Origin: Actinomycetes bacterium
Lineage (GTDB): Bacteria; Actinomycetota; Acidimicrobiia; Acidimicrobiales; Bog-793
NCBI GenBank assembly: GCA_021791795.1
Contig: JAJYVX010000006.1
Location: forward strand, 1-42,089
DNA: 42,089 bases
Direction of reading: 5' to 3'
Below, piece by piece: positions 4,842-38,487 of this stretch; positions within the stretch are counted from its first letter, which is position 1; every line of letters starts with the position of its first letter. The position numbers and the translations under genes were made by a program. The notes under the pieces were generated by a model. It did no database searches. It saw nothing but the letters and a program-made list of their open reading frames with translations, and was not told where the DNA came from.

Positions 4842-5050
4842 ATGGCAGTCCTGGTCGGACCGGCAGCTCTCGGTGCGTTCCCCGGCGACAACCTCTCCTA
4901 CCTGGTCGGTCGCCGCCTCGGTCCGCTGACCACGCGCCGCTTCTTCTCCACCGAGAAGGGTGTGAACCGGCGGCGCCTGGACAGAACGTGCCCTCCGGGT
5001 CTACGGGCTCGTCTCATCCTCGCGTGTCGGGTCATCCTCGGCGAGCGGTG
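4842..5050 (+). pseudogene. DedA/VTT membrane protein internal fragment
   Basis: AALGAFPGDNLSYLVGRRLG...RFFS.EKG...RLILACRVILGER matches the DedA GAxxGDxxxYxxGR and RFIPGxR motifs. N- and C-termini are missing. Confidence 0.6.
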
Positions 5051-5233
5051 GAGGGCCGACGAAGATGAAAGGCGGCGTGACAGCGTCCGTGTTCCACCTA
5101 CCCGCCACGACGTGCAATCGTGTCCCGATATGGCAACGGAACCCGACCACCGAGACCGGAAGCCGGCCGGGCGGGCCGTGCTGACGCTGACCGAGCCGGG
5201 CGTGCGGAAGCCGGCCGGGCGCCGGCGCGGCCG

Positions 5234-6283
5234 ATGACCGCCGGATCGGTCGACTCCGTGCTCGGACCGGTTCCGGGCGAAGAGCTCGGACCGACCCTCG
5301 TGCACGAGCACCTGCTCGTCGACACGCGGACCACCGAGCACAAGGAGGCCAGTCATCGCGCGACGCCGCTCGGTCCGCACAACTACTACCTCTCGCGACG
5401 CCGCGACGACCATCCCCACGCCCTCGTCCTCGACTCGGTGAGCGAAGCCGTGGACGAGCTGCGGCACTTCCGCGATCTCGGTGGCCGCACTCTCGTCGAG
5501 GTCACCCCCCGCTGCCTCGCACGCAACCCGGCCGGGCTCGTCGCCATCGCGCGGGAGAGTGGTGTGAACGTCGTCATGGGCGGGGGCTTCTACGACCACC
5601 ACTACCACCAAGACGTCGTCCACCGCGCGTCCGTCGACGCGCTGGCCGAGCTCCTGGTGCACGACTGCACCGAGGGCGTCGACATCGGTGAGAGAAAGAC
5701 CGTCCGCTCGGGCGTGATCGGGGAGATCGGCCTCAGCTGGCCGGTGCTCGACTGCGAACGCAAGGCCCTCGTGGCTGCCTCCATGGCACAGGCGGCAACA
5801 GGCAAGGCGCTCGTGATCCATCCCGGACGGAACCCTGAGGGGCCTCGCTTCGCCCTCGACGAGGCAGAGCGCGCCGGTGCCGATCCCTCGCGGGTGGTCC
5901 TTTCTCACATCGACCGCACACTGGACGAGGCGGCGCCGATCGTGGAGCTGGCGCGGCGCGGCGCCTTCGTCTCGTTCGACCTGTTCGGAAACGAGTCGAG
6001 CTTCTACCCGTACTCGGACTTCCACATGCCGAACGACGGGGCACGCCTTCTTTTGATCCGGTCCGTGGCCGACCTGGGGGAGCTCGACCAGGTGGTCGTA
6101 TCTCAGGACATCTACCGCAAGACACATCTCCTCCGCTATGGCGGCGAGGGTTACGGTCACATACTCCGCGACGTAGTGCCGGTGATGGACAGGTTCGGGC
6201 TGGACGCCGGGATGCAACGGAGTCTGCTGACGGACAACCCCGCTCGTGCCCTCACAGGTCAGCCGGCGGCCACGCCGAAGTAG
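5234..6283 (+). CDS. Phosphotriesterase-family amidohydrolase, PTER/Php-like (Glu-bridged)
   Basis: SVLGPV...LGPTLVHEHL, GVIGEIGLSWP, IHPGRNP, SHIDRT, DLFG, SQDI, YGGEGYGHIL, DNPARAL. ATG 5234 chosen because family similarity begins there (ORF track starts at 5120). Confidence 0.9.
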   Translation: MTAGSVDSVLGPVPGEELGPTLVHEHLLVDTRTTEHKEASHRATPLGPHNYYLSRRRDDHPHALVLDSVSEAVDELRHFRDLGGRTLVEVTPRCLARNPAGLVAIARESGVNVVMGGGFYDHHYHQDVVHRASVDALAELLVHDCTEGVDIGERKTVRSGVIGEIGLSWPVLDCERKALVAASMAQAATGKALVIHPGRNPEGPRFALDEAERAGADPSRVVLSHIDRTLDEAAPIVELARRGAFVSFDLFGNESSFYPYSDFHMPNDGARLLLIRSVADLGELDQVVVSQDIYRKTHLLRYGGEGYGHILRDVVPVMDRFGLDAGMQRSLLTDNPARALTGQPAATPK

Positions 6284-7095
6284 GCGCGGCACTCCTGCGG
6301 TCCGGCCGGCCGCCGTCCTACCAGCTCGCACAGAACGACTGCCTGCTCGACGCGCTCGGCGTTCGAACCGGCGAGCACGCCGCGGCGCAGGTCGACGTCG
6401 TCCTCGAAGCCCACTCGGATCCCCGGCGCTCCGAGTGAGAGGGCGGCCATAAGCATCCGGGTCTGGTGGCGGCCCACCGCCGTGACGGTGAAGGGCGATC
6501 CTGCCGGTACGTGAGCCGCCATCGCGCTGAGCGCCGCCGTGGTCGGAGGCGCTCCGCCCACCACCCCGAAGACGAGGTTGAAGGGGGTGCTTGTGGGCAG
6601 CTCACCACGGGCGATCAGCTCGGCTGCGGCCACGACATGGCCGAGCTCGAACGCCTCGACCTCGAGCGGCTTGCCGAAGCCCCGCGCCACCTCGATCACC
6701 CTTGCGGTCTCGGCGCCGCTCGTGACGAAGGGGACGGCGCCGAAGTTCAAGGAGCCGGTCTCGACGCCGACGGCGTCCGGATCGGCATAGGCCCCCGCCA
6801 GGCGTTCCTCGAAGGTCATGCCGCTGCCTCCGCCCGTCGACACGCAGCAGAGCATCTCGGAGGCTCCGTGGACGCCCGCGATGACACCCTCGAACAGCCC
6901 TCGTTCCGCGCTCGGGCGACCGTCGACGTCGCGCACGTGCACGTGCACGACGCCCGCCCCGGCCGATCCCGCCCGCACCGCCTCGGCGACGATCTCCTCG
7001 ACCGTGTAGGGCACGTTCGGGTTGTCCTTCTTCGTCGGCTCGCTCCCCGTCGGCGCGACGGTGACCACCACCGCATCTCCTGTGACACTTCCCAT
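6259..7095 (-). CDS. kce: 3-keto-5-aminohexanoate cleavage enzyme family (Kce/BKACE, DUF849)
   Basis: TVAPTGSEPTKKDNPNVPYTVEEI, HVHVRD (Zn His pair), STGG, GSLNFG, VGRHQ, IRVGFED. ATG at 7095 with CAGGCT 6 nt upstream. Confidence 0.9.
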   Translation of the reverse strand: MGSVTGDAVVVTVAPTGSEPTKKDNPNVPYTVEEIVAEAVRAGSAGAGVVHVHVRDVDGRPSAERGLFEGVIAGVHGASEMLCCVSTGGGSGMTFEERLAGAYADPDAVGVETGSLNFGAVPFVTSGAETARVIEVARGFGKPLEVEAFELGHVVAAAELIARGELPTSTPFNLVFGVVGGAPPTTAALSAMAAHVPAGSPFTVTAVGRHQTRMLMAALSLGAPGIRVGFEDDVDLRRGVLAGSNAERVEQAVVLCELVGRRPAGPQECRAYFGVAAG

Positions 7096-7157
7096 GCCCA
7101 CAGCCTGCTTGCTCCCCGCCGGCGGCGCCACTACCGTGCGGCGGACCCGGAGGACCT

Positions 7158-8219
7158 GTGCAGGCGAGACATCCGCATCCGTTGGGCGCCGATCCTGCGG
7201 TGCTCGGCAGCTGGCGAGCGCTCGCGCCACCGGGGACGATGTTGCACATCGCCGACCGGGTCGACGCCGACTCGGCGGCAAACGAGCACGAGGCCGAGAT
7301 CGAGGTCGAGCTGCTCAACATCGACGCTGCGAGCTACCGCCAGATCCGCGAGGGCTGCGGGGGTGAAGCGGTGGCGATGGCATCCGCGATCAGAGAGGTC
7401 GTGACGCGGCGGGGGAAGATGCAGAACCCCACGACCGGCTCGGGCGGAGTCCTCATGGGGCGCCTCTTGAGTGTCGGGTCGGCTCGGCCCGAGCAGGGAG
7501 AGGACGCTCCGATCGGCGGCCGGGTCATCCCGCTTGCCTCGCTCATCTCCACGCCGCTCCGGCTCGACTCCGTCGGGCCACTCGACCCTGCCGACCCGCA
7601 GCTTCCCGCGAGCGGCCGCGCCATCGTCACCGGTCGGATGTCCTGGGCAGTGGTCCCCGACGACCTTCCTTTGTCGGCCGTCGTGACGGCGATCGACGTC
7701 TATCCGGCGGCCTCGCACACGAGGGCGCTCGCTCGCGATGGCGCCCACGTCGTCGTGCTCGGCTCTGGCCACTCCGGGCTTGCCGCCGTCGCGGCTGCCC
7801 GGGAGGGAGTCGGCCCGGCCGGCACCGTGACCGTGGTCGATCTGAGCGAAACGGCGCTCGAGCGCGCCAACCTCGTCGACCCCCGGGCGACCACCGTCGT
7901 AGGAGATGCCACGCAGCCCGTAGCAGTGGCGCAGAGTCTTGCTGCGCTCGGACTCCCGCCGTCCGACCTCACCCTTCTCTGCACGACGATCCAAGGTTGC
8001 GAGGGGGCGGCGATCCTCCTCACCTCGGACGAAGGGACGATCCTCTTCTTCTCGACAGCCACGTCGTTCGCGGCTGCAGGACTCGGCGCCGACTCGGTCA
8101 GCTCGCTGGCGTCGCTCTCGATCCCGAACGGCTACACGCCGGATCGGGGACGCTACCTTCTCGACCTCTTGCGGCGCACGCCTCCGCTTCTCGACTCCTT
8201 CACGCGGCACAGTCGCTGA
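7158..8219 (+). CDS. kdd: L-erythro-3,5-diaminohexanoate dehydrogenase homolog (divergent)
   Basis: LNIDAASYRQI, RGKMQNPTTGSGGVLMG, TPLRLD, DATQP, FFSTATSFAAAGLGA and NGY are collinear with Kdd. GGAGG SD upstream. Confidence 0.85.
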   Translation: MQARHPHPLGADPAVLGSWRALAPPGTMLHIADRVDADSAANEHEAEIEVELLNIDAASYRQIREGCGGEAVAMASAIREVVTRRGKMQNPTTGSGGVLMGRLLSVGSARPEQGEDAPIGGRVIPLASLISTPLRLDSVGPLDPADPQLPASGRAIVTGRMSWAVVPDDLPLSAVVTAIDVYPAASHTRALARDGAHVVVLGSGHSGLAAVAAAREGVGPAGTVTVVDLSETALERANLVDPRATTVVGDATQPVAVAQSLAALGLPPSDLTLLCTTIQGCEGAAILLTSDEGTILFFSTATSFAAAGLGADSVSSLASLSIPNGYTPDRGRYLLDLLRRTPPLLDSFTRHSR

Positions 8220-8279
8220 CGTCCTCGGGGTCGGGCAGCCATGAGCCTCGTCGGCGGGGACGTCGATCGCAGGCACTCC

Positions 8280-8480
8280 CGGATCGAGCGAACGTAGCGG
8301 TTCACCTCGTCCTCGCCCAGCACGGCCATCTCGCTCGCGATGACTTTCGCCACTCGTGCTCCCGAGCAGACGCGAACACCTTTCACCGTGGCCACGCCTG
8401 ACCAGTGCTTGGTCTCCACGACGAAGGCCCCGCTCGGGCTGTTCGCGCGGCGCGCATCCATCCCCTTGAGATGGCGACTG
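8280..8480 (-). pseudogene. NERD (nuclease-related domain) fragment
   Basis: RRANSPSGAFVVETKHWSG resembles NERD (IDH...GxFVIETKxWSG) with the IDH segment missing. No intact ORF context. Confidence 0.45.
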
Positions 8481-8625
8481 ATTGATACTTGTACGCCTTC
8501 AAGGAACACGTCGGTTCGGCCTCGCAGCAACTTTCCAGGACTCGGGCCGGTGACGCCGGTCGGCCCGCGACGAAGCGCAAGAAAGCCGCTCCGCAAAAGG
8601 TATCCTTGTCATCCGGGAGGTGCGC

Positions 8626-9897
8626 GTGTCCAGGACTGGGCCCGGGACAAGCAGATCCGGCGGCTTCACGGCCGCAGCCGCGAGGTCGCGACCGAACACG
8701 ACACGATGGATGCTCCTCGTGTTCATGTTCCTGAGCGGTTGCACTCAGATCGCCGTCGCTCCCCTTCTCCCGACATACGCGCACCAGTTCGGTCTCTCGC
8801 GCTTCGGGCAGGGCCTCCTGCTGGCGGCCACGGGGCTCGCCACGCTCGCCGTCGCCCTCCCGTCGGGCGCGCTGTCCGACCGGCTCGGATCACGCCGCGT
8901 CACGATCCTCTCCGGCGGCCTCATGGCGGGCGCCTCCTTGCTCCAGGCATTCGCTCCCTCGTTCGAGATGCTCCTCATCGCCCGCCTCATCTTCGGAGCC
9001 GGTTACGGCATCACCTGGACGTCTGGCCTCTCGTGGCTCTCCGACGTCACGCCGGCACGATCGAGCATCGGAGGTTCGGTGGCGAGCGCAGGCCTCGGCA
9101 ATGTCGTCGGCCCGGTGCTCTACGCCCTGCTCGTGGAGCACTTCGGGCTGTCGCTGCCGTTCATGGGTACGGCCTTCTGTCTTGCCGCGGTCACCGCCCT
9201 CCTCATGGGGCTCCGTGGTACCGACGCTCCGGCGGAGATGCCGGCCCCGATGCGCGCCGGCATCCTCCTCGCGGCTCAGGACCGGCTGACGCTCTCGGCT
9301 ACTGCCGCGATCGTGGTCGCCGGCGTCAGCTCAGGGGTCGCCTACCTCCTCGTACCCGGAGCTCTTCATGCCGACGGCGCCTCGACCGGCATGATCGGGC
9401 TCGTCTTCTCCGGGGCGGGGTTGCTCTTCGTAGCCGGGAGCGCGGTGACGTCGTGGTTCGGGCATGCCGCCATACGCCTTCGCGTCGCGATAGGCGGGAT
9501 GCTCGTCCTCGCGCTCGCCATCTCGCCGGCGGCAGCAAGCTCTGCCTCGCTGGCCATGATCGGGATGCTCTTCGCGACCTCGGCCGCTCGCTCGGTCGTC
9601 TGGACCGTCGCCTACCCGCTCGGAGCCGTAGGGGCTGAGGAGAGCGGCGCCGGCATAGGGCTTGTGATGGGGTTGCTCAACGGCGTCTGGGCCGCGACCG
9701 CAGTCGTCACCCCTTTGCTCGCGAGCGTCATCGCCGAGCACTCGAGCTTCCGTGCGGTGTTCGGGCTCGCCGAGATCGCGAGCGTCGTCCTCGCCGGCAT
9801 GCTCGCCGTGTTCGTCCTCAAGACGCCGGAGTCCCCGTACCGGACACTGCCCGCCAAGGCGATCCGGGCGCTTCGGGGGCTGCACCCGCACGACTGA
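8626..9897 (+). CDS. MFS transporter
   Basis: About 12 hydrophobic segments and motif A GALSDRLGSRRV. GGGAGG SD at 8615-8620 favours GTG 8626. Confidence 0.9.
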   Translation: MSRTGPGTSRSGGFTAAAARSRPNTTRWMLLVFMFLSGCTQIAVAPLLPTYAHQFGLSRFGQGLLLAATGLATLAVALPSGALSDRLGSRRVTILSGGLMAGASLLQAFAPSFEMLLIARLIFGAGYGITWTSGLSWLSDVTPARSSIGGSVASAGLGNVVGPVLYALLVEHFGLSLPFMGTAFCLAAVTALLMGLRGTDAPAEMPAPMRAGILLAAQDRLTLSATAAIVVAGVSSGVAYLLVPGALHADGASTGMIGLVFSGAGLLFVAGSAVTSWFGHAAIRLRVAIGGMLVLALAISPAAASSASLAMIGMLFATSAARSVVWTVAYPLGAVGAEESGAGIGLVMGLLNGVWAATAVVTPLLASVIAEHSSFRAVFGLAEIASVVLAGMLAVFVLKTPESPYRTLPAKAIRALRGLHPHD

Positions 9898-9990
9898 TTC
9901 GCGGTCACCCGGCCCGGAGCCTCTCGTCCGGCGGCGCCGCTCCCCCGGTCCGACGCCTGCCCACCGGTGGCGCCACCTCGCAAGACCTTC

Positions 9991-10029: not shown

Positions 10030-10052
10030 GTCGGCAACTTGAGCTCAGAACG

Positions 10053-11720
10053 TCAGGTCAACCACATCATGCGGAAGCGGTACTCGATCCAGGGGTCTCC
10101 TGTCTTCTGGGCGATGACGCCGGCGAGGTTCGTCGCCTGGCCCACGATGACCGGGTTGAACGCGGGGATGATGTAGCCGCCTTCGTTGTAGTCCATGGTC
10201 ATCATCTCGTGGACGAGCCCCGTCTGCTTGGCCTGGTCCGGCTGGGCAAGCGCCTGCTTGTAGAGGTTGAGGTACGACGTCCCGTACTGGCTCGTGTCCC
10301 AGTGGGTCTCGTCCCACGGGGCGCCCGGGACCATGGAGTAGCCGGCCTGGCGCAGGTACGGGTACCCGCTCCACCAGTCCTGCGCGAACGTCCATTGCAG
10401 GTAGTTCGGGCCGAAGAACTCGCCGGAGGTCACTTGGTTGAGGTTGATGGTGATGCCGGCGGCGGAAGCCTGCTGCTTCAGCAGCTGGGCCATCTGCACC
10501 GCCCCGGTCTTGATCGGCCCGGTGGTGAGCGTCACCGTGAGACCGCTCCCGAAGCCCGCCTTCTTCAAGAGCGACTTGGCCTGCGGGATGTCCTGCACGC
10601 GCTGGGGGAGCGAGTGGTCGTACTCCGGGTCCGTGATGCTGAAGATGTCGTTGCCGAGGAAGCCGAAGCCCCCGTAGACGACCTTCTGCATCTGCGGGCG
10701 GTCGACCACGAGCCGCATCGCCTGCCTGACGTTCACATCGTTGAAGGGCGGCTTGTCGAGCCGCATGGTGAACGGGACCCAACCCGGGCCACCCCACACG
10801 TTCGCCACCTGGCCGCCGCCCCTCACCTCGGCGACGCTCGAGATCGACAGCTGGTCGCAGCACGTCGCCTGGTTCGACAGGAGCGCGTTCACCTGGCTCT
10901 GCTCGTCCGAGTAGTCCTGGATGACCAGCGTGTCGACGTAAGGCTCGCCCGTCACGAAGTAGTTCTTGTTCGCCGAGAACGAGCTCGACACGCCGGGGGT
11001 GAACTTGTCGCCCGCTGCCGGGTCGTACTTGAACGGACCGGTCCCGACGGGCAGCTTCGGGTTGTAGCCGACCGGCACGATGCTCATCTCGCCGTTGCCT
11101 ATGAGCGAGATGGGCAGGATCGAGTACGGCGAGCTGCAGGGGATCTGCACCGTGTAGTCGTCCAGCTTCTTCGCGTTCTTCAGCTCCAACGCCGCGAGCC
11201 CGGAAGCCGCCGAAAGCTTGTTGCTCACGATGCGGTTGAAGGTGTAGAGCACGTCGTCGACGGTGAGCGTCTTGCCGTTGTGGAACTCGATGCCCTTGCG
11301 CAGCTTGATGGTCCACTCGGTGGCACTCGGGTTGGCCGTCACCTCCTCGGCGAGGTGCGGCTGGATGACGTTGTCCTGGTTCAGCTCGAGGAGTGTGTCG
11401 TAGAGCTGAGGGGCACGTGCGAAGTCGAGGTTGGTGACCGCCTTGTTGCCGTCGAGCGTGTCGGCCGAGCCGCCGCCCGTGCTGGCGAGCGTGATCGTCC
11501 CGCCGCGCTTCGGCTTGCCTGCTCCCGATGTCGTCGTGCTGCTGCTGCTGCTGCCGCTGCTGCTCGGGGACGACCCGCACGCTTCGAGGGTGCCGCCCAT
11601 ACCGAGGACAGCGAGGCCACCGCCGGCGCGGATGAGGAAAGCGCGCCGAGAGTGCGGACCCAACAGACCGCCGCCCTCCGAACTACCTGGCTCCTGTTCC
11701 GGGCTCTTGTCTCGGGCCAT
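10053..11720 (-). CDS. ABC transporter substrate-binding protein, family 5 (peptide/nickel type), Tat-exported lipoprotein
   Basis: SRRAFL twin-Arg motif, LEAC lipobox, Ser/Thr linker, LRKGIEFHNGKTLTVDDVLYT, GTGPFK, PFNDVNVRQAM. Confidence 0.92.
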   Translation of the reverse strand: MARDKSPEQEPGSSEGGGLLGPHSRRAFLIRAGGGLAVLGMGGTLEACGSSPSSSGSSSSSTTTSGAGKPKRGGTITLASTGGGSADTLDGNKAVTNLDFARAPQLYDTLLELNQDNVIQPHLAEEVTANPSATEWTIKLRKGIEFHNGKTLTVDDVLYTFNRIVSNKLSAASGLAALELKNAKKLDDYTVQIPCSSPYSILPISLIGNGEMSIVPVGYNPKLPVGTGPFKYDPAAGDKFTPGVSSSFSANKNYFVTGEPYVDTLVIQDYSDEQSQVNALLSNQATCCDQLSISSVAEVRGGGQVANVWGGPGWVPFTMRLDKPPFNDVNVRQAMRLVVDRPQMQKVVYGGFGFLGNDIFSITDPEYDHSLPQRVQDIPQAKSLLKKAGFGSGLTVTLTTGPIKTGAVQMAQLLKQQASAAGITINLNQVTSGEFFGPNYLQWTFAQDWWSGYPYLRQAGYSMVPGAPWDETHWDTSQYGTSYLNLYKQALAQPDQAKQTGLVHEMMTMDYNEGGYIIPAFNPVIVGQATNLAGVIAQKTGDPWIEYRFRMMWLT

Positions 11721-11886
11721 AGGGCATCCCCCCTCTCAGCGCGCGGGCCTCGGCCCGACACGCGATCGTCAAGTATGCCTCACACTAGGAAAGGCTCGTA
11801 GGCTCTGCAAGAGCACCCTTTGCCTTGCATATCCTCCAGGGGACACTGAGGCAGGGTGACCTGCTCTTTCCCACGAGGTGGAACTG

Positions 11887-14800
11887 ATGGTGCACGAGTG
11901 CGACGGACACGACCACCGCTTCGAGCAGTACGCAACCTCTGATCGACGCCTGCTCGCTCTCGTGCGGGACTTCGACGAGCGCCTGGCCCAAGCCGCGGCA
12001 CGGGGCGCCGATCTCTCGAAGGTACTCGCCGCGCTCGATCCCGACCCCGCCCGGTACACCGACGTCGGGGAGGGCGGAGGCATCGTCGACGAGGTGCTCG
12101 CCGAGGCGGAGGAGGCACTCGCGACGGCCCCCGACATCCCGGGCTTCGCGAACCTGCGCAGCCTCCTGCTGCCGACATCTCGGCCGGCCAATCGCCCGGC
12201 GATCGCCTCGTGTCCCGACGGGCGGCTGCTCGCATCCTGGATCGAGTGGACGGAGCACGAAGGCGAGCAGGTGCACGCCGTCCTGCTCGACCGTGACGGC
12301 CGGCCACTTGCCGAGCCCCGGGCGGTGTCGGGGCAGCTCGCAGACTGCCTGCGGCCCTCTGTCGTCTTCGACGGTGACGGCACCGGATGGGTCTTCTTCG
12401 GCCTGCGCGCAGCAGAGGGTGTGGCGGTCTTCGCCACACGCGAGGAGGGCTCGGGCTGGCTGCCTCCTTTCCCGGTGAGCACGACGGCGCACCCGTCGTT
12501 CAACCAGGAGGTGGCGCTCCGCTGCGACGGCGCGCTCGAATGCTGCTGGCAGGGCTACGCCGGCGGGCGATTCCGCATCTACACAAGGACGGTCGGCCGT
12601 TCCCGCCTCGGCGACACCCGCCTCGTGAGCGCGGAGGACGAGCGCAACGTCTGGGACCCGGCGGTGGCCTGCGACTCGAGCGGCCGAACCTGCTTCGGGT
12701 GGACCACCTACGGCGAGCGAGGCTACGAGACCGCTCTCCGCATGAGAGAGACAGGCGGTGCCGAGTCGAGCAGGCTGATCGTCGCGCCTGAGGCTTATTC
12801 GCTGCACCCGAGCCTCGCCTTCACGCCCGACGGGGCCCTCTGGTGCGCATTCGACACGATCGCCCTCGGCGGCCACGCTGGATCCGGCCCGACCCGGCTC
12901 CGCACCCGCGAGGAGATGGCGTTTCCTCTGAGGACCGGTCGCAAGGCGGACGGGAGGGCGGTCCCCGCCGACCTCGCACCGGACGTGACCGCAGAGGTGA
13001 CGGTCGTGCGCATCGGCGACTTCGGCCACGCCGCGGAGCCAACAGGTCCGATCGGCGTGTCGACCCACGTGTCGCCGGCCGGACTGCCGCGGATAGCCGC
13101 GACCCCAGAGGGTTCCGTGGCGGTCGCATATCGCGCCATGCGCCGCCTGCCGTTGATGCTCTACTTCTGGGAGACCGTGCTCGAGTGGCACACCCCGAGA
13201 GGTTGGGGCAACCTCACGACCTTCGACGAGACGGACGGACCGCTCGAGGAGCCGGCCGTCGCCGCCCGGGAAGACGGAGTGGTCGCCTCGTGGCAGCAGG
13301 ACGGCCGGCAGGCGCGCGGCCTCGCGTGGACCGAGGGTTTCGGGGGTGAGGAGTGCCTCGCCCTTCGCGAGCACTACGGCGAAGTCGTCTGGCACACCCT
13401 CCACACGGGTGGGCACATACGCCTCGGCGCGGTTGACGTTCCTTTCGGGACGAGCACGGCTGCCGAGGGCTCATCGCCGGCGGCAGCCGGGGCGGCGGAG
13501 CCTCGATCGGCCACCGCGACGACGGCGGCGGACGCCCCGCACAGCGAGAGCCGTCCCTGGGCCGTGGCGCGGCGAGGCGGCCGGGGACACGACCGCTCCT
13601 GGCGCTACCGCACCACCGCGGACGGGCGCGACTACGGGCTCTACTGGGGCGACCTCCACCGCCACTCGCTCATAAGCAGGTGCACCGCCGGCGACGAGCC
13701 TGAGCTCGACGACTTCTACCGCTACTCCTTCGACGTCTGCGAGTACGACTTCTGGGCGGTCACGGACCACGCGGAGAACACATCGTCGTTCCAGTGGTGG
13801 TCAATCCAGAAACTGGCCGATGTGCTCAACGTCGAAGGCAGGTTCGTACCGTTCTACGGCTTCGAGTGGACTGCCGCCACCGGCCACCAGAACGTCATCT
13901 ACGAGTCGACGAGACGCGACGCACCCATCTACTCCTCGACGGCCGAAGCCACCCGCAACCCTGCCCAGCTCTGGTCGCACCTGCGCAGAGCCGGCCAGCG
14001 CAGTCTCACCATCCCGCACCACCCGGGATCGGCGATGGTGCCCTTCGACTGGTCCTACCGCGACGAGGAGATGTGCCGCCTCGTCGAGGTCTTCCAGGCC
14101 TGCCGGGGCAACTACGAAGACGACGGCTGCTTCCGGCAGTACTCCGACTGCACGCTCACCGGGACCTTCGTCGCCGACGGGCTGCGGGCCGGGCATCGCT
14201 TCGGCCTCATCTCGTCGTCGGACCACGGGAACGGGGCGAGCTTCGTAGGCGCCTTCGCGACGGATCTGACGCGAGCAGCCGTCTTCGACGCGCTCCACGG
14301 CCGCCGCACGATCGCCGCCACGACCCGCGACGTCATCGTCGACTTCAGGCTGAACGGCTGCTTCATGGGCTCGGAGGCACCCCCCGCCGAGAGCGTCTCG
14401 ATCGCTGCCGCGGCCGAGGGCTACTGCGACGTCGCCCGCTTCGACCTGCTGCGCAACGGCGAGGTCGTGCACCGCATCGAAGCCGACCTCGGCCTTGCTC
14501 CATCCGAGACCGCCTTCCCCCTCCGCGTCGAGTGGGCGGCGGGCGAGACCGGCCGCAGCGACTGGACCGGGAGCCTCCGTGTGGGCGGTGGTCGCATCCT
14601 CGAGACGAAGTACTGGTCGCCCGAGATAGTGGAGGTGTCGCACGACACCATCCGTTGGACCGCCGAGACGCGCAACTTCCGCTCGCAGTACGGCTTCCAG
14701 CGCGGCGGCGTGGAACTGACGGTTCTCGGCACGCCCGGCACGACGGTCGACATCGTCACAGCCTCGATGGGCGGGCGGACAACCCTGGGCGACGTAGCGC

Positions 14801-15006
14801 GTGACCGGAAGATCGAGATCGGGCACACCGCGGCCGGCACGCTCGCCCTGCAGCTGGCGACGGGCGGCCTCGTGAGCCTCGGCACCTCCACTGTCCGCAT
14901 GGACTACGAGGAGCCGCTCTCGCAACCCGGGTGGTACTACGCCCGGGTCATCCTGGAGGACGGGGAGATGGCCTGGTCCTCTCCCGTGTGGGTCAGTCCT
15001 TCCTGA
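11887..15006 (+). CDS. Large DUF3604/PHP-like metallohydrolase with N-terminal repeat (putative beta-propeller) region
   Basis: YWGDLHRHS, AVTDH, GFEWT..GHQNV, IPHHP, GLISSSDH, YYARV...MAWSSPVWV. GAGGTGG SD favours ATG 11887 (alternative GTG 11878). Confidence 0.8.
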   Translation: MVHECDGHDHRFEQYATSDRRLLALVRDFDERLAQAAARGADLSKVLAALDPDPARYTDVGEGGGIVDEVLAEAEEALATAPDIPGFANLRSLLLPTSRPANRPAIASCPDGRLLASWIEWTEHEGEQVHAVLLDRDGRPLAEPRAVSGQLADCLRPSVVFDGDGTGWVFFGLRAAEGVAVFATREEGSGWLPPFPVSTTAHPSFNQEVALRCDGALECCWQGYAGGRFRIYTRTVGRSRLGDTRLVSAEDERNVWDPAVACDSSGRTCFGWTTYGERGYETALRMRETGGAESSRLIVAPEAYSLHPSLAFTPDGALWCAFDTIALGGHAGSGPTRLRTREEMAFPLRTGRKADGRAVPADLAPDVTAEVTVVRIGDFGHAAEPTGPIGVSTHVSPAGLPRIAATPEGSVAVAYRAMRRLPLMLYFWETVLEWHTPRGWGNLTTFDETDGPLEEPAVAAREDGVVASWQQDGRQARGLAWTEGFGGEECLALREHYGEVVWHTLHTGGHIRLGAVDVPFGTSTAAEGSSPAAAGAAEPRSATATTAADAPHSESRPWAVARRGGRGHDRSWRYRTTADGRDYGLYWGDLHRHSLISRCTAGDEPELDDFYRYSFDVCEYDFWAVTDHAENTSSFQWWSIQKLADVLNVEGRFVPFYGFEWTAATGHQNVIYESTRRDAPIYSSTAEATRNPAQLWSHLRRAGQRSLTIPHHPGSAMVPFDWSYRDEEMCRLVEVFQACRGNYEDDGCFRQYSDCTLTGTFVADGLRAGHRFGLISSSDHGNGASFVGAFATDLTRAAVFDALHGRRTIAATTRDVIVDFRLNGCFMGSEAPPAESVSIAAAAEGYCDVARFDLLRNGEVVHRIEADLGLAPSETAFPLRVEWAAGETGRSDWTGSLRVGGGRILETKYWSPEIVEVSHDTIRWTAETRNFRSQYGFQRGGVELTVLGTPGTTVDIVTASMGGRTTLGDVARDRKIEIGHTAAGTLALQLATGGLVSLGTSTVRMDYEEPLSQPGWYYARVILEDGEMAWSSPVWVSPS

Positions 15007-15789: not shown

Positions 15790-16590
15790 ATGCACCGGTC
15801 TTCGCTCGCGCCCGACGCCCACGCGGGTTCGGTGGCGCTCGTCTCGGGCGGAGGTACCGGGATCGGCCGGGCGGCGGCGCTCGAGCTCGCGAGGACCGGA
15901 GCAAGAGTCGTCGTCTGCGGGCGCCGGGCCGATCTCCTCGAGGAGACGGTGGCCGCGATCGCCGCCGTCGGGTCCGAGGCACTCGCCGTACCGGCGGACC
16001 TCCGGGAGCACGCGGCGGTCGCACAGGTGGTCGACGCCGCCCTCGAGCGGTTCGGCGCCGTCGACGTGCTCGTGAACAACGCCGGCGGCCAGTTCGAGGC
16101 GGCCGCGGAGGACATATCCCTGAATGGCTGGCGGGCGGTCCATCGGATCAGTGTCGACGCTGTCTGGGACATGACGCACGAGGTCGCCACCCGCTCGATG
16201 ATCCCGAACCGCCGGGGCGTCGTCGTCTTCGTCGGGTTCAGCCCGCGCCGGGCAGTGCCGAAGATGGCGCATGCCGCGGCCGCTCGGGCGGCGGTCGACA
16301 ACCTGGCGGCGGGTCTCGCGGCGGAGTGGAGCCGGTACGGGATACGCGCGGTCTGCGTCTCGCCGGGCAACATCGACACCGAGGCCATCGTCGCCTACGG
16401 CGAGGAGGAGATAGACGGCTGGCGACGCTCGGTGCCCCTCGGCCGCCTCGGTACAGCCGAGGAGGTTGCAAGCGTGATCGCCTTCGTCGCCTCCCTCGGC
16501 GCGAGCTACGTGACCGGCGCCACCATCCTCGTCGACGGCGGCCTCGACGCCTGGGGTCAGGGCTCTCCCCCGCCGGCGCCCGAGGCATGA
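15790..16590 (+). CDS. SDR family oxidoreductase (2,4-dienoyl-CoA reductase/AtuB-like)
   Basis: SGGGTGIG, CGRR, NNAGGQF, and HAAAAR in place of YxxxK, VPLGRLG. Confidence 0.85.
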   Translation: MHRSSLAPDAHAGSVALVSGGGTGIGRAAALELARTGARVVVCGRRADLLEETVAAIAAVGSEALAVPADLREHAAVAQVVDAALERFGAVDVLVNNAGGQFEAAAEDISLNGWRAVHRISVDAVWDMTHEVATRSMIPNRRGVVVFVGFSPRRAVPKMAHAAAARAAVDNLAAGLAAEWSRYGIRAVCVSPGNIDTEAIVAYGEEEIDGWRRSVPLGRLGTAEEVASVIAFVASLGASYVTGATILVDGGLDAWGQGSPPPAPEA

Positions 16591-18683
16591 GCCACGACCA
16601 TCCGGGCGTCCAGCCCCACCACCTCCGACGCCTCGACGACGAGCGGGTTGACTTCGAGCTCCAGCACCTCAGGGTGGGCGGCCGCCACCTCCGACAGAAC
16701 GGAGAGGGCTCGGGCCGCCTCCCCCACCGCCAGAGCCTGACGCCCCCGTGCGCCGAGCAGCAGCGGGGCGGCCCGTAGCCGGCCTATGAGCTCGAGCGCC
16801 TCATGCTCGTCGACAGGCGCGAGAGCCACGGCGGTGTCGTCGAGCACCTCGGCATAGATCCCGCCGAGCGCCACGAGAGCCACCGGCCCGAAGCGCGGAT
16901 CGCGCACCGCTCCGACGAGGAGCTCGACTCCCGACACGTTCGCCATGGGCTCCACAGAGAGGCGCGACTCACCGAATCTCTCGGCGAAACCCGCCACCGT
17001 CCTCCGCACCTCCCCCTCCCCACTCACGTCGAGCGCCACCCCGCCGGAGTCCGACTTGTGCTCGAGCTCGGCCGCCTTGATCACGACCGGATAGCCGACG
17101 GTCTCTGCCGCGAGGACGGCTTGCTCGACGGTCCTCGCCTCTTGCGCCGGCAGGAAGGGGAAGCCTGCTTCGGCGAGCAACGCCCTCGCTGCGAAGTACC
17201 CGCCCTCGGCGACCCGGCGGCCCGCCGGTCTCTCGACTCCACCAGCAGGGCGCGGCCGCCGCCTCTTGTGGAGGGACTCCGCCCGCCGCGTGAGACGGAC
17301 GAGCGCCTCTGCTGCGTCCTCCACGTTGGCATAGACCGGTACCCGCCCGTCGCGCAGCTTGCCGAGAGGACCCGCCTCCTCCCCCACCTTCTCCTCGTCG
17401 ACGAGCCGGTGCATCGAGTGCACGACCATGGGCTTCTCCGACGTCTGCATGATCGAGGCGAGGAAGCTGCCCACCTCGGCCTCCGCCTTCGCCATCTCGG
17501 GGCTGTACTGCCCGTAGCCGCCGAAGTAGCCGGTGAGGAGAACCGAGTCCACCTCGTCCGAGGCGGCGAGCGCCAGAGCGACGCGCGTGAACGACCAGAT
17601 GTCCTGCTCCCCCGCGCCGGCGAGGTCGACCGGGTTGTCCGTACCTCCCGCCGTCCCCGTCGCGCCCGCAAGCTCCTTCGTGAGAGCCGGCGAGAGCTCG
17701 GGCACCTCGAGGCCGCGCATCGCCACCGCGTCGGACGCGATGGCGCCGTGGCCGCCGCCGTCCGCCACCACGCCGACGCGCGGCCCTTTCGGGAGGAGCC
17801 CGAGGAGGAGCGACTGACAGGCGTCGATGAGCTCCTTCGGCGTGGAGACACGCTCGATGCCCGCCGCCCGGCAAGCCGCTTCGACGGCCGTCTGGGACGA
17901 CACGAGCGCCCCCGTGTGCGAGCGCGCGGCCCGGCGCGAGGCGTCGCTCTCCCCCGGCGCCAGGAGGACGACCGGCTTTCCCGCCTCTGTCGCCCTCGAG
18001 GCCACGTCGACGAAACCGCGACCGTCCCTGAAGTCTTCGCAGTACACGCAGATCACCTCCACCGACGGAGCATCGGTGAAGTCGTGGAGCAGATCTGATA
18101 CGTCGAGATCGGCCTGGTTGCCCACCGAGGCGAAACGGGCCACGCCGAGCCCGGCCTCCACCGCCTTCTGACCGAGCTCCAAGGCGAGGTTGCCGCTCTG
18201 GGAGATGAGACCGATCGGCCCAGGGGCGAGCTTGTTCGAGGAGAGGAAGAGGGACGCGGCGGCGTCGCTCAATCCGAGGCAGTTGGGCCCGAGGAGGACC
18301 GCGCCCGCCTGCCGCACCTTTGCTACTGCGGCTTCCTCTCGCGCCCTTCCTTCTCGTCCGGTCTCGGCCAGACCGGCCGTGATACCGACGAGCGCCCGCG
18401 CCCCTGCCGCAAGGGCGTCTTCGAGCGCCTGCTCGAAACCGGCCTCCGGCACGCACAGCGCCACGAGGTCGGGCGGCTCGGGCAGGTCGGCGACGGACTC
18501 GTAGGCCCGGTGGCCGAGGACCTCGCCGCCCCGCCGGTTCACGAAGTAGACCGAGCGCAGGTGGTCGCCTTCGAGGGAGCCGCGTGCGAGCCAGTGGCCC
18601 CACTTGTCCGGGTCGTTCGAGGCCCCGACGATGGCCACCGACGACGGGTTGAACAGGGGGCGCAGGTCCCTCTTCTCGGACAC
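16557..18683 (-). CDS. Acetate/acyl-CoA ligase (ADP-forming) family, fused CoA-binding and ATP-grasp domains
   Basis: SVAIVGAS, LLGPNCLG, SQSGN, SVGNQAD, SHTGAL (phospho-His), NPVDL, HKSDSGGV, DPRFGP, EVNPL. Confidence 0.92.
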   Translation of the reverse strand: MSEKRDLRPLFNPSSVAIVGASNDPDKWGHWLARGSLEGDHLRSVYFVNRRGGEVLGHRAYESVADLPEPPDLVALCVPEAGFEQALEDALAAGARALVGITAGLAETGREGRAREEAAVAKVRQAGAVLLGPNCLGLSDAAASLFLSSNKLAPGPIGLISQSGNLALELGQKAVEAGLGVARFASVGNQADLDVSDLLHDFTDAPSVEVICVYCEDFRDGRGFVDVASRATEAGKPVVLLAPGESDASRRAARSHTGALVSSQTAVEAACRAAGIERVSTPKELIDACQSLLLGLLPKGPRVGVVADGGGHGAIASDAVAMRGLEVPELSPALTKELAGATGTAGGTDNPVDLAGAGEQDIWSFTRVALALAASDEVDSVLLTGYFGGYGQYSPEMAKAEAEVGSFLASIMQTSEKPMVVHSMHRLVDEEKVGEEAGPLGKLRDGRVPVYANVEDAAEALVRLTRRAESLHKRRRPRPAGGVERPAGRRVAEGGYFAARALLAEAGFPFLPAQEARTVEQAVLAAETVGYPVVIKAAELEHKSDSGGVALDVSGEGEVRRTVAGFAERFGESRLSVEPMANVSGVELLVGAVRDPRFGPVALVALGGIYAEVLDDTAVALAPVDEHEALELIGRLRAAPLLLGARGRQALAVGEAARALSVLSEVAAAHPEVLELEVNPLVVEASEVVGLDARMVVAHASGAGGGEP

Positions 18684-18696
18684 CTCCGGCGTGCGG

Positions 18697-20490
18697 CTAG
18701 TAGCCGCTCAGCACCGGCTCGTCGGCCGGTGCCAGCTTCGGCACGTCCTCTATGAGCTTGATCGTGTAGGGGTCCTCGGGATGCTCGAGGACCTTCTCGA
18801 CCGAGCCATGCTCGACGATTCGTCCCTCGTTGAGGACGACGACCTTCTGCGCGACGGAACGGACAAGGGCGAGGTTGTGCGTGATGAAGACCATCGAGAG
18901 GCCATGCTCTCGCTGCAGGCGGCGCAGCAGCTCGACGATCACGGCCTGGACGGAGACGTCGAGGGCGGAGGTCACCTCGTCGCAGACGAGGACGTCCGGC
19001 TCGACGACTATCGCCCGCGCGATGGCGACGCGCTGGCGCTCGCCACCCGAGAGCTGGTCCGGGTAGCGGCCGAGGAAGTCCTCGCCGAGCGAGACCTCCT
19101 GCAGCACCTTCGCAGCCCGATCGCTCATCTCCCGCCGCGACATGTCGAAGTAGTGGTCGAGCGGCTGGGCGAGGATCTGGCCGATCGTCTTGCGCGGGTT
19201 GAGCGAGGTGTAGGGGTTCTGGAAGATGTACTGGATGCGCCGGAGCACGTCCTTCGAACGCCTGCGCGTGCCTCGGGCGAGGGGGTTGCCCTCGAAGCGG
19301 ATGTCGCCCTCCCAGTTCGAGTGGAGGCCGACGATGCAGCGGGCGAGCGTCGTCTTGCCCGAGCCGGACTCCCCGACGACAGCGACGCACCGCTCGGGCG
19401 CGAGGTCGAGGCTCACGCCGTGCAACACGGGCTGGCTGCCGTACTTCGCCGAGATGTCCTTCAGGGAGAGCGACGGCTCGGCGATGCTGTCCGGCAGTGG
19501 GGTGAGAACGACCCGCTCCCTCTCGGCGTGGACGATCTCGGACGCCCGGAAACAGCGTACGACCTGCGAGCGCACCTGTACGGGCGCGGGCGTCTCAACC
19601 CGGCATCGGTCGATGGCGAAGCTGCACCTCGGAGCGAAGAAGCATCCCTGCGGCCTGCGACCCGGCCGGGGTGGCTGCCCGTCGATGCCGGTGAGCACCT
19701 CCGCCCTCTCGGGCGAGGGCGCGGCGGCGAGGAGACCCCGCGTGTAGGGGTGAACCGGGGTGTTGAAGACGGGGTAGGTCGCTCCGAGCTCGATCACGCG
19801 GCCGGCGTACATCACAGCCACCTTCGAGACGAGACCCCCGACGACGGCGAGGTCGTGGCTCACGTACACGGCGGCGACGCCGTAGGTCTTGCAGAGGTTG
19901 CGGATGGTCTCGAGGACGTGGCGCTGCGTCGACACGTCGAGGCCTGTCGTCGGCTCGTCGAGGACTATGAGCGAGGGGCGGCAGCAGAACGCCATGGCGA
20001 TGGCCACCCGCTGCTGCTGGCCGCCGGAGAGCTGGTGCGGATAGCGCTTCATCATCTCCGGCTGGGCGTCGAGGCGTACCTCCGCCAGCACCTCGGCCAC
20101 CCGCGAACGGACCTCGTCCACGGCGCCCGGGTGCGAGGTGAGGCACTCGGTGAGCTGGGAGCCGATCTTGAGGGTCGGGTTGAGGGCGGCGGAGGGGTCC
20201 TGCGGCACGTATGCCACCTTGGCGCCGCGGAATTCGCGCATCTCTTGGGGCGAGAGCGTGAGGAGGTTCACGCCGTCGAGCGCGATCTCGCCCCGCGTGA
20301 TCTCGAGGCCTCGGCGGGCATGACCGAGAAGGGCGAGGGCGACCGTCGTCTTGCCCGAGCCGGACTCGCCGACGAGCCCGAGCACCTCGCCTGCGCCGAC
20401 GGTGAGAGACAACTCGCTCACGACGTCCCTGCCGGTACCGGCGAGGCAGATCTCGAGGTCCTTCACCTCCAGGCGTTCGTAGGCCCTCAT
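18697..20490 (-). CDS. Peptide ABC transporter ATP-binding protein (fused double NBD)
   Basis: Two GESGSGKT Walker A motifs, LSGGQQQR and LSGGERQR signatures, DEPTT/DEVTS. ATG 20490 overlaps the permease stop (ATGA). Confidence 0.93.
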   Translation of the reverse strand: MRAYERLEVKDLEICLAGTGRDVVSELSLTVGAGEVLGLVGESGSGKTTVALALLGHARRGLEITRGEIALDGVNLLTLSPQEMREFRGAKVAYVPQDPSAALNPTLKIGSQLTECLTSHPGAVDEVRSRVAEVLAEVRLDAQPEMMKRYPHQLSGGQQQRVAIAMAFCCRPSLIVLDEPTTGLDVSTQRHVLETIRNLCKTYGVAAVYVSHDLAVVGGLVSKVAVMYAGRVIELGATYPVFNTPVHPYTRGLLAAAPSPERAEVLTGIDGQPPRPGRRPQGCFFAPRCSFAIDRCRVETPAPVQVRSQVVRCFRASEIVHAERERVVLTPLPDSIAEPSLSLKDISAKYGSQPVLHGVSLDLAPERCVAVVGESGSGKTTLARCIVGLHSNWEGDIRFEGNPLARGTRRRSKDVLRRIQYIFQNPYTSLNPRKTIGQILAQPLDHYFDMSRREMSDRAAKVLQEVSLGEDFLGRYPDQLSGGERQRVAIARAIVVEPDVLVCDEVTSALDVSVQAVIVELLRRLQREHGLSMVFITHNLALVRSVAQKVVVLNEGRIVEHGSVEKVLEHPEDPYTIKLIEDVPKLAPADEPVLSGY

Positions 20491-38474: not shown

Positions 38475-38487
38475 CGCCGCAACCCAG

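Follow-up and report, generated by a model that had tools for sequence, protein, structure and literature searches.

The locus raises the question of whether a gene pair resembling the kdd and kce genes of lysine fermentation serves that pathway or another one. In the window, i.e., the whole stretch of 42,089 nucleotides that was analysed, a gene for a Kce-like beta-keto acid cleavage enzyme of the BKACE family (6259–7095, reverse strand, 278 aa) and a gene for a Kdd homologue (7158–8219, forward strand, 353 aa) are placed head to head. The open reading frames found were 6259..7281 on the reverse and 7158..8219 on the forward strand, with coding-type GC3 values of 0.86 and 0.83, respectively. 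In the former the BKACE domain begins only at residue 71, and the ATG at 7095 gives a protein of 278 aa, comparable to the 280-aa orthologue in locus L003. Homology of the Kdd-like protein to PDB 7dl3 extends from residue 17 and the start of translation is therefore upstream of the MLHIA motif; a GGAGGA at 7149–7154 precedes the GTG at 7158. With these two starts the divergent intergenic spacer spans 7096–7157, so that the arrangement and the 62 bp given in the initial annotation were borne out by the reading frames and the sequence. A consensus scan of 4400–10100 gave no sigma-70-like site.

Homology, modelling and phylogeny place the Kdd-like protein in the Kdd family, with a predicted 3,5-DAHDH fold. 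A phmmer match to 7dl3 covers the full length (residues 17–349 against 9–347, E 2.5e-37), and Foldseek aligned the AF2 model (pLDDT 93.3) to 7dl3, 7dl7, and 7dl0, the wild-type and E310G/A314Y entries of 3,5-DAHDHcca, at TM 0.82–0.86, and to 7dl1 at 0.79. The crystallised enzyme (7dl3/7dl7) thus has the same fold as the model (TM 0.82–0.83) at 29–30% identity, and the two have in common NxDxxS, (R)GKxxNPxTGSGG, GxGxxG, and a Gly at the position of Gly323. All 37 positions invariant in aminomutase-linked (Kam-linked) Kdds and in the two clades described below, B and C, are found here, and the invariant family motifs NxDxxS, GKxxNPxTGSGG, GxGxxG, and FxSxATxF are present. The initial annotation had reported that NIDxAS and RGKMQNPxTGSGG were retained while several other motifs had changed. 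Both are in place, as NIDAAS (54–59) and RGKMQNPTTGSGG (85–97), and every altered motif is present: MLHIA (28–32), SLISTPL (128–134), DVYPAAS (180–186), FFSTAT (297–302), GADS (310–313), and PNGY (323–326). The consensus with which they had been compared (LPQPA, SLSLTPL, DVAGAPA, FFSMAT, GAEG, GNGY) is indeed that of 7dl3 and the aminomutase-linked Kdds. Relative to the crystallised Kdd, Asp replaces Glu310, His replaces the Lys of GxGKSG and the Gln of LPQxA, Pro replaces Gly in both DVxGAPA and IGNGY, and Thr replaces the Met of FFSMAT. The NCBIfam KDD model (NF052381, equivalog) gives the protein 137.5 bits, below the cut-off of 200; three other members of clade C score 116–148 bits and five canonical-motif Kdds, four of them aminomutase-linked and the fifth from locus L025, score 239–267.

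Most of these changes are clade markers rather than private to this protein. In a midpoint-rooted tree of 269 sequences it falls in clade C (123 tips, support 1.0), the members of which are mostly Acidimicrobiales and other Actinomycetota; clade B as defined here (20 tips, support 0.991) belongs to Solirubrobacterales/Thermoleophilia, and clades B and C group together with a support of only 0.52. Relatives carry automatic annotation as 3,5-diaminohexanoate dehydrogenase. When positions had to be at least 85% conserved within clade C (121 sequences) as well as within the Kam-linked set (39) but to differ between them, 20 positions separated clade C from the 39 aminomutase-linked Kdds. They include the replacements of Gln30 by His, Gly183 by Pro, Lys205 by His, Met300 by Thr, Glu312 by Asp, and Gly323 by Pro, in a numbering where 312 is Glu310 of the crystal structure. 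The recurrence of the changes across the clade, at positions 87–100% conserved in the 39 aminomutase-linked Kdds, goes beyond chance; the alignment and phylogeny with which the initial annotation proposed to check its claim mark the substitutions as features of a well supported clade. One exception is the Leu of MLHIA: the clade-C consensus is LPHIA, and the Pro-to-Leu change is therefore private to this protein. In Rossmann folds the second strand usually suggests NAD as cofactor when it ends in Asp; such an Asp is found in 123/123 sequences of clade C, 20/20 of clade B, and 11/39 of the Kam-linked set, which suggests that NAD is used in clades B and C, while the crystallised Kdd was solved with NADPH. 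Apart from Glu310 and Gly323, the roles given to residues of Kdd are our assumption. At the position of Glu310, all 39 Kam-linked Kdds (100%) have Glu and all 121 clade-C sequences (100%) have Asp. In the crystallised enzyme Glu310 and Gly323 are described as sitting at the nicotinamide, with Glu310 contacting the amide of NADPH and E310G altering the substrate scope (PMC9902596).

The partner enzyme (Pfam PF05853, 241.2 bits, gathering cut-off 24.8) gives a similar picture. Its score with the NCBIfam model Lys_ferment_KCE is 223.5 bits, under the cut-off of 382; the clade-C values are 224–253 bits, and those of two Kam-linked loci 393 (L043) and 374 (L074). It is 72–77% identical to its orthologues in L003 and L004 and about 35% identical to Kam-linked Kce (tblastn). 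The alignment with PDB 2y7d (E 8e-41) superimposes the HxH, R..E-D, and TG(A/S)E positions: HVH and R..FED match the metal-site HxH, Arg, and Glu-Asp, and TGSE retains the Glu that 2y7d has in TGAE. The TGSE and FEDD pointed out in the initial annotation are both present. FEDD, i.e., EDD for EDN, is private to this BKACE, the orthologues in L003 and L004 retaining EDN, and together with the Leu of MLHIA it carries little weight, being private to this genome. The roles of the residues aligned with the 2y7d metal site, and of Glu14 of Kce, are presumed here. Given the role we take it to have, the retained Glu would suit a cationic substrate, as the initial annotation remarked, in agreement with a deacetylase acting first.

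A candidate for such a deacetylase is encoded next to the pair. The gene at 5120..6283 (forward strand) is convergent with kce, its 3' end overlapping the kce stop by 25 bp; its start is uncertain because homology begins near residue 41. The product is a PTER-like binuclear-metal amidohydrolase of the PTE family (PF02126, 191.7 bits), proposed from its sequence to be an N-acetyl-beta-amino acid deacetylase. Its closest solved relative is 9efa/9efb, "Phosphotriesterase-related protein" and probably the sponge PTER enzyme (E 2.3e-66; 228 bits, compared with 176 for the next, 3k2g). PTER is a eukaryotic hydrolase of N-acetyltaurine and N-acetyl-beta-alanine, whereas the protein described here is bacterial and encoded in a catabolic gene cluster. 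PTER is reported to cleave these two compounds but neither N-acetyl-alpha-alanine nor N-acetyl-GABA (PMC13311154); the substrate range of the mammalian enzyme is said to be very narrow, and the preprint on the structure likens its pocket to that of HDACs (PMC12873775). Read against the residues named in that preprint, with a chain numbering offset of +2 that we infer, the alignment shows that, besides the metal ligands, the two proteins share the oxyanion Tyr and general-base Asp as well as the four acid-group residues: positions aligned with Tyr131, His206, Arg209, Arg238, Tyr268, and Asp303 are retained. At the gate, Thr stands in for Phe34; Phe270 is replaced by Tyr, as is His305, which is proposed to donate a proton to the departing amine (PMC12873775). 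Six of the seven acid-binding (His206, Arg209, Arg238, Tyr268) and catalytic (Tyr131, Asp303, His305) residues are thus kept. As the PTE family also holds lactonases and esterases, deacetylase activity is not assured. The orthologues of L004, L028, and the L003 genome are 70–75% identical to the PTER-like protein. The gene is present in 4/5 clade-C genomes, being adjacent in the loci of the window, L004, and L028 and placed at another site of the L003 genome; none was found within 1 kb beyond kce in L003, nor in the genome of L007 at E ≤ 1e-20.

Clade B, the Kdd clade nearest to clade C, shares with it the Glu-to-Asp and Lys-to-His changes, the Rossmann Asp, an adjacent BKACE, and a neighbouring small-molecule deacetylase. 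Its kdd loci carry a BKACE gene (15/17), a hotdog thioesterase gene (14/17, also in L084), and a gene resembling acetylpolyamine amidohydrolase (APAH; 12/17; E 7.8e-73 to 3q9b). This deacetylase has the HDAC/APAH fold and is unrelated to the PTER-like protein, for which 3/3 clade-B genomes searched gave no match at E ≤ 1e-20. With a PTER-like protein in clade C and an APAH-like one in clade B, two unrelated deacetylase families accompany the two clades; PTE and HDAC-like queries matched 0/39 of the Kam-linked loci. Clade B differs in that its Kce has Asp in place of Glu (GADVFR) and EDV/EDA, its Kdd keeps LPQPA, FFSMAT, and IGxG, and the thioesterase is present. One clade-B locus, L010, has caprolactamase-like HyuA/HyuB and a class-III aminotransferase instead of the deacetylase.

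Further neighbours recur in clade C, where only five loci have readable surroundings; in one of these, L028, kdd is split over two frames and there is no BKACE gene within 8 kb of it. Downstream of kdd an MFS transporter (8620..9897, forward strand, start anywhere within 8554–8620; PF07690, 112.7 bits) has orthologues near kdd in L003 and L004 (58–59% identity) and is proposed as a candidate importer of the substrate. A terminator-like hairpin is located near this gene, at 9998–10029. The SBP_bac_5 solute-binding protein (10053..11720, reverse strand; PF00496, 222.5 bits) is a conserved neighbour: L004 has a homologue (66%) adjoining its PTER-like gene, and so does L087, which belongs to the genome of L003 (45%); the membership of the binding protein in the module is uncertain. 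A large metallohydrolase of the DUF3604/CehA-McbA type (11878..15006, forward strand; PF12228, 38 bits; NCBIfam NF038032, 67.4 bits, below the cut-off of 80) is likewise conserved, with a 63% identical homologue in L004, as is an SDR oxidoreductase (15790..16590, forward strand; PF13561, 172 bits), the 71–72% identical homologue of which is directly downstream of kdd in L004. The protein of the ADP-forming acyl-CoA synthetase type (16557..18707, reverse strand; CoA_binding_2, Succ_CoA_lig, and ATP-grasp_5 domains) has a 54% identical homologue divergent to the clade-C kdd in L007 and, speculatively, could be an outlet for an acyl-CoA product.

The genomes also set the pair apart from Kdd proper, which has different neighbours and accompanies aminomutase genes; lysine 2,3- and beta-lysine 5,6-aminomutases would supply its substrate. 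A profile search found lysine 5,6-aminomutase KamD (PF09043) in 0/5 clade-C genomes, and the KamA family (TIGR00238) gave no match in the genome of the window and none reaching the cut-off in the four others; the former is a MAG, 91.9% complete, and the others are MAGs of unstated completeness. KamD scored 775 bits in the positive control Anaeromyxobacter soli, which has a canonical-motif Kdd, and 4/5 clade-B genomes have no KamD. The Kdd-like protein is very unlikely to be an L-erythro-3,5-diaminohexanoate dehydrogenase proper, given the KDD score below the cut-off, Asp for Glu310, and no aminomutase match in the genome. The altered substrate specificity suggested in the initial annotation gains support from four independent lines, namely the scores below the cut-offs, the 20 substitutions including Asp312, the absent aminomutases, and the different neighbours. 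Since the family branch is separate, the PTER-like gene is a neighbour and the genomes are without aminomutases, a different, possibly N-acetylated, beta-amino acid is probably degraded.

On balance we favour, with some reserve, that the pair is not the Kdd/Kce of lysine fermentation and that it would instead form the core of a small catabolic module of some Acidimicrobiales and other Actinomycetota. Computation gave the family membership, the separate clade with its shared substitutions, the missing aminomutases, and the recurring neighbours; from sequence and gene context we infer the catalytic steps, their order, the cofactor, and the substrate. The conserved MFS protein would take up an exogenous, probably N-acetylated, beta-amino acid, perhaps helped by the SBP_bac_5 protein, and the PTER-like amidohydrolase would then strip the acetyl group. 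The Kdd-like enzyme, proposed to be a beta-amino acid dehydrogenase that depends on NAD and uses a substrate different from L-erythro-3,5-diaminohexanoate, would catalyse oxidative deamination of the free 3-amino group to give a beta-keto acid, which the BKACE would convert with acetyl-CoA to acetoacetate and a shortened acyl-CoA. Our guess at the most likely substrate is a beta-amino acid bearing a distal positive group, e.g., a diamino acid of the beta-lysine type.

Other readings of the same genes deserve consideration. It is conceivable, albeit unlikely, that the Kdd-like enzyme and the BKACE degrade a free, non-acetylated beta-amino acid and that the PTE-family neighbour is unrelated or serves some other purpose, for instance by opening a precursor that is a lactone, lactam, or ester, or by dealing with a by-product. 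The lactonases, esterases, and phosphotriesterases among its relatives, the replaced His305, and L003 and L007 without an adjacent PTER-like gene speak for this, and HyuA/HyuB in L010 suggest lactam chemistry for at least one relative. On the other hand, among solved relatives PTER comes first with a wide lead (228 bits, 176 for 3k2g), the four acid-group residues and the oxyanion Tyr are kept, and clade B independently carries another deacetylase family. Quite improbable to us is an acetyl group on the distal amine, with the Kdd-like enzyme and the BKACE acting on the acetylated compound and the deacetylase following cleavage. Such a scheme would be similar to the beta-lysine route of Pseudomonas B4, which reportedly runs from N6-acetyl-beta-lysine via 3-keto-6-acetamidohexanoate and 4-acetamidobutyryl-CoA to GABA and is said to include deacetylase and thiolesterase activities; we know of no genes assigned to it. 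Its chemical logic is the same, leading from an acetylated beta-lysine to a 3-keto acid, on to CoA-dependent cleavage, and then to deacetylation; as in the module proposed here, cleavage gives acetoacetate and an acyl-CoA, reportedly with a transaminase in place of the dehydrogenase. The BKACE, thioesterase, and acetylpolyamine-type deacetylase of clade B match these activities. However, Asp312 of Kdd and the Glu of TGSE in Kce, presumably facing the distal amine, are kept acidic and would suit a charged group better than an acetamide. Furthermore, the literature searched for the pathway intermediates gave no relevant paper, and mammalian PTER is described as rejecting N-acetyl-GABA (PMC13311154).

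That the pair is an ordinary L-erythro-3,5-diaminohexanoate dehydrogenase plus Kce, with aminomutase genes in unassembled parts of the MAG, is very unlikely. Automatic annotation of the relatives and the KDD and KCE models as best family matches would fit, as would a genome 92% complete, but both scores are under the curated cut-offs, Glu310 and 19 other residues conserved in the Kam-linked set are replaced, and all 5/5 clade-C genomes are without KamD and have the KamA family under its cut-off, while the control has KamD. We give hardly any credence to the biosynthetic direction, in which a BKACE-type condensation and reductive amination would yield a beta-amino acid for export by the MFS protein. 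In principle either reaction can be reversed, and variants of Kdd have been engineered that serve reductive amination (PMC9902596), but family scans found no NRPS, PKS, or tailoring genes in the window, the surroundings are of a catabolic type (acyl-CoA dehydrogenases, SBP, hydrolase), and the conserved partners are a hydrolase and a thioesterase.

Returning to the catabolic module, the gene context suggests a pathway absent from the literature searched. It is tempting to speculate, although we hold the idea as a whole only tentatively, that soil Actinomycetota possess an undescribed route for breaking down N-acetylated, cationic beta-amino acids, fed by unrelated deacetylases, PTER-like or APAH-like depending on lineage, and employing a second natural specificity class of NAD-dependent dehydrogenase with a matching BKACE. 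If this is true, bacterial PTER homologues would gain a physiological role, and a testable one, the animal relative having only recently been shown to be an N-acetyl amidohydrolase. It would also place other natural beta-amino acid dehydrogenases next to 3,5-diaminohexanoate dehydrogenase, which a 2023 review names as the only one reported and whose strict specificity is said to limit use in making chiral beta-amino acids (PMC9902596). As clades B and C are already changed at and around the engineered hotspot Glu310, their members are ready-made biocatalyst candidates. Surveys that use kdd and kce as markers of lysine-to-butyrate conversion would miscount these proteins, which databases name "L-erythro-3,5-diaminohexanoate dehydrogenase".

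The BKACE gene (6259-7095, minus strand, ATG at 7095, 278 aa) and the Kdd homologue (7158-8219, plus strand, GTG start preceded by GGAGGA, 353 aa) lie head-to-head with a 62-bp spacer, an arrangement proposed in the initial annotation and borne out by the ORF coordinates in the window sequence; a promoter scan of the spacer found no site. Third-position G+C of the two frames is 0.86 and 0.83, respectively, which is coding-type, in a window of 69% G+C from a MAG of 3.45 Mb and 91.9% completeness. The kce-side protein is clearly a BKACE (PF05853 at 241 bits; 2y7d at E 8e-41). The window Kdd aligns over its whole length, at about 30% identity (E 2.5e-37), with 7dl3, the Candidatus Cloacamonas 3,5-diaminohexanoate dehydrogenase, and its AlphaFold model (mean pLDDT 93.3) superposes with TM 0.82-0.86 on 7dl3, 7dl7 and 7dl0, which cover the wild type and the E310G/A314Y variant, and with 0.79 on 7dl1. 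Local Pfam-A gave no family for this protein, while precomputed tables give PF26370 for every relative, and the database label on these relatives is 3,5-diaminohexanoate dehydrogenase.

In a midpoint-rooted FastTree of 269 Kdd sequences (79 from genomic loci including the window, 116 full-length homology hits and 74 full-length cluster representatives) the window Kdd belongs to a 123-tip clade (support 1.0), here called clade C. The nearest clade, clade B, has 20 tips from Solirubrobacterales and Thermoleophilia (support 0.991), and the grouping of the two is weakly supported, with a value of just 0.52 that rises to 0.92 once one further representative is added. The score on the NCBIfam KDD model cleanly tells the groups apart, being 239-267 in five canonical-motif Kdds (four of them aminomutase-linked, plus the Kdd of locus L025), 161-188 in three members of clade B and 116-148 in three other members of clade C. 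The window Kdd scores 137.5, below the equivalog cut-off of 200, and its BKACE partner scores 223.5 on the KCE model, below the cut-off of 382. About 115 of the clade-C proteins are metagenomic, and the loci nearest to the window come from Acidimicrobiales MAGs. No other Kdd homologue was found among 200 genomes of the same order at E<=1e-30, so kdd is evidently rare in that order; a metagenome scan with a single Kdd protein matched three loci, none of them of clade C.

Every Kdd and Kce motif quoted in the initial annotation is present in the window proteins, and the Kdd motifs that it gave as normal are found both in the crystallised enzyme and in aminomutase-linked homologues. Nearly all of the changes it assigned to this Kdd are in fact clade-wide in clade C; the Leu of MLHIA is private to this protein, with Pro at that place across the clade. 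From canonical to clade-C sequences LPQxA becomes LPHxA (Gln to His), SLSLTPL becomes SLIAxPL (Leu to Ala; Ser in the window protein), DV(A/C)GAPA becomes DVYPAAS (Gly to Pro among the changes), FFSMAT becomes FFSTAT (Met to Thr), GAEG becomes GAD(S/A) (Glu to Asp), IGNGY becomes IPNG(Y/L) (Gly to Pro) and, among further positions beyond the list in the annotation, GxGKSG becomes GxGHAG. Altogether 20 positions are clade-specific, i.e., at least 85% conserved in both 39 aminomutase-linked Kdds and 121 clade-C sequences with differing residues, and clade B has seven of the 20 clade-C changes, Glu to Asp and Lys to His among them. In the crystallised Kdd Glu310 hydrogen-bonds the NADPH amide, the E310G substitution is reported to alter substrate scope markedly, and Gly323 is 3.8 Å from the NADPH amide (PMC9902596). 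By alignment Glu310 corresponds to Asp312 in the window Kdd, Gly323 to a conserved Gly325 and Gly321 to Pro323; it is from Glu310 and Gly323 alone that the substitutions are placed at the active site. An Asp ends the second Rossmann strand in all clade-B and clade-C sequences, as against 11 of the 39 aminomutase-linked Kdds. As such an Asp usually goes with NAD+ preference, this suggests that the enzymes of both clades favour NAD+.

The BKACE partners also differ between the groups. Among 30 BKACE genes from Kdd loci, those linked to aminomutase genes read GAETTR ... EDN, those of clade C GSEPT(K/R) ... EDN and those of clade B GADVFR ... ED(V/A). The Glu that the initial annotation saw retained in Kce, which we take to be the binder of the substrate amine, is thus kept across the clade-C partners. 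The FEDD motif is likewise present in the window Kce but is confined to this genome, and for that reason is given little weight. Together the retained acids, Asp312 of Kdd and this Glu of Kce, suggest a substrate that retains a positive group at its far end, and the side chain of Asp, shorter than that of Glu310, would match such a group placed one carbon farther out.

The database label would fit true lysine catabolism, and the distribution of aminomutase genes bears on this alternative. The window's genome has one Kdd and one BKACE, and neither KamD (PF09043) nor the KamA family (TIGR00238) gave a match in it; KamD is absent from the four other clade-C genomes, also MAGs, as well, and in none of these four did the KamA family give a match above cut-off. 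KamD was not found in four of five clade-B genomes, the fifth having a fragmentary and weak hit at 90 bits. As a control, the genome of Anaeromyxobacter soli, whose canonical-motif Kdd has no aminomutase within 8 kb, does encode KamD at another place (775 bits). Any single absence is weak because the genomes are MAGs, but the pattern across genomes is not, and it speaks against a route to 3,5-diaminohexanoate.

Gene neighbourhoods were compared at 81 loci with a Kdd hit. Aminomutase genes lie within 8 kb in 39 of them (Actinomycetes, Myxococcia and Elusimicrobia), and at 23 no query gene is close by. In ten actinomycete lysine-type loci an Amidohydro_3 gene stands between kdd and kamD (e.g., L062:8804-10564; also L067, L075, L079, L042, L044, L049, L052, L073 and L078); none of the 26 Kam-only loci, these ten included, has a BKACE within 8 kb, and in Myxococcia and Elusimicrobia kce is retained nearby.

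Clade C is represented by five loci (the window, L003, L004, L007 and L028). The window and L004 have in common a PTE-family hydrolase (5120-6283, plus strand, in the window), BKACE, Kdd, MFS (8620-9897, plus), SBP_bac_5 (10053-11720, minus), a large DUF3604/CehA-McbA-type hydrolase and an SDR; the identities are 58-72% and the gene order is rearranged. L003 carries BKACE, Kdd and MFS, with two ORFs beyond kce that have no Pfam match, and the PTE-family orthologue of its genome (74-75% identity) lies beside an SBP_bac_5 gene on a separate short contig. At L028, from a long-read MAG, a PTE-family gene is directly upstream of kdd and no BKACE occurs within 8 kb; kdd matches in two frames with a break at L028:8761-8768, attributable to a frameshift or else to an indel of the assembly. 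L007 has neither a PTE-family gene nor BKACE; the ADP-forming acyl-CoA synthetase of the window has a homologue there. The PTER-like gene is therefore adjacent at three of five clade-C loci and present in four of five genomes.

In clade B, BKACE occurs at 15 of 17 loci and a hotdog thioesterase at 14 of 17, between kdd and BKACE where both occur, and metagenome contig L084 shows the same kdd-thioesterase-BKACE arrangement. An HDAC-fold gene is found at 12 of the 17, its best solved relative being acetylpolyamine amidohydrolase (E 7.8e-73). In this Solirubrobacterales/Thermoleophilia clade the 4HBT thioesterase, of about 130 aa, directly follows kdd (e.g., L005:9018-9419; further such loci include L008, L009, L013, L016, L021, L029, L030, L056, L076, L082 and L084), usually with an APAH-like gene flanking. 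At the clade-B locus L010 (3797-11606) caprolactamase-like HyuA/HyuB take the place of the deacetylase and stand, together with a class-III aminotransferase, by kdd, thioesterase and BKACE, an arrangement that may point to a related pathway working on lactams.

The closest solved structure to the window PTE-family protein is 9efa/9efb, "Phosphotriesterase-related protein" (E 2.3e-66), followed by 3k2g (1e-50). PTER is described as an N-acetyltaurine hydrolase (PMC11374699), and in the account cited it accepts N-acetyl-beta-alanine and does not accept N-acetyl-alpha-alanine or N-acetyl-GABA (PMC13311154). According to a preprint on sponge PTER structures, His206, Arg209, Arg238 and Tyr268 surround the product sulfonate, Tyr131 is the oxyanion residue, Asp303 the base and His305 the proton donor, and the pocket resembles that of HDAC (PMC12873775). 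If the residue numbers of the chain and of the preprint are offset by +2, as deduced in this analysis, six of these seven residues are kept in the window hydrolase and His305 is replaced by Tyr; at the gate, Thr takes the place of Phe34 and Tyr that of Phe270. An enzyme that reads an acetamide two carbons from the acid would supply the free 3-amino acid for a Kdd-type enzyme.

We infer every function in the module. In the most likely scheme the substrate would be taken up, deacetylated, oxidatively deaminated at C3 in an NAD-linked step and cleaved by BKACE with acetyl-CoA to acetoacetate and an acyl-CoA. In clade B the thioesterase would then free this acyl-CoA; in clade C the ADP-forming synthetase may do so. 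That the substrate is acetylated is argued chiefly from the observation that unrelated small-molecule deacetylase families stand beside both non-lysine Kdd clades, while HDAC-like and PTE queries matched none of the 39 aminomutase-linked loci. Against the scheme as a whole count the PTER catalytic residue that is not kept, the activity of PTE-family enzymes on lactones and esters too, the weak support for joining clades B and C, and a clade-C context of just five loci, three of them with the PTER-like gene adjacent. Rival readings, each held less probable, are that the substrate is a free beta-amino acid and the hydrolase unrelated, that the acetyl group is distal and comes off after cleavage, that the pair serves true lysine catabolism, and that the module is biosynthetic. 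For the substrate, a beta-lysine-type diamino acid is the leading guess, held with low confidence. Chemically, 3-aminobutyrate and beta-alanine look improbable, since cleavage by BKACE of the keto compounds they yield would be pointless or odd.

The enzyme families are already known, but neither the specificity clade nor the gene module seems to have been described: a literature search found no paper on Kdd homologues beyond lysine fermentation, nor on any that neighbour PTER or HDAC genes, and the BKACE family study and the Kdd structure paper may bear on this. Elsewhere in the window, a single 645-codon stop-to-stop frame (36726-38663, minus) encodes a LipB-type octanoyltransferase followed by LIAS_N and radical-SAM lipoyl synthase domains, and represents a lipB-lipA fusion or else a pair of genes sharing one frame. 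An ORF upstream of the cluster (1911-2351, minus) has a DUF4277 domain, which is presumably transposase-associated. The kdd-MFS interval (8220-8619, about 400 bp) is without a convincing ORF, its 147-aa minus-strand ORF having no Pfam match. The MFS and SBP_bac_5 genes converge on a hairpin at 9998-10029, with a 14-bp G+C-rich stem and a T-rich tail, that looks like a bidirectional terminator.
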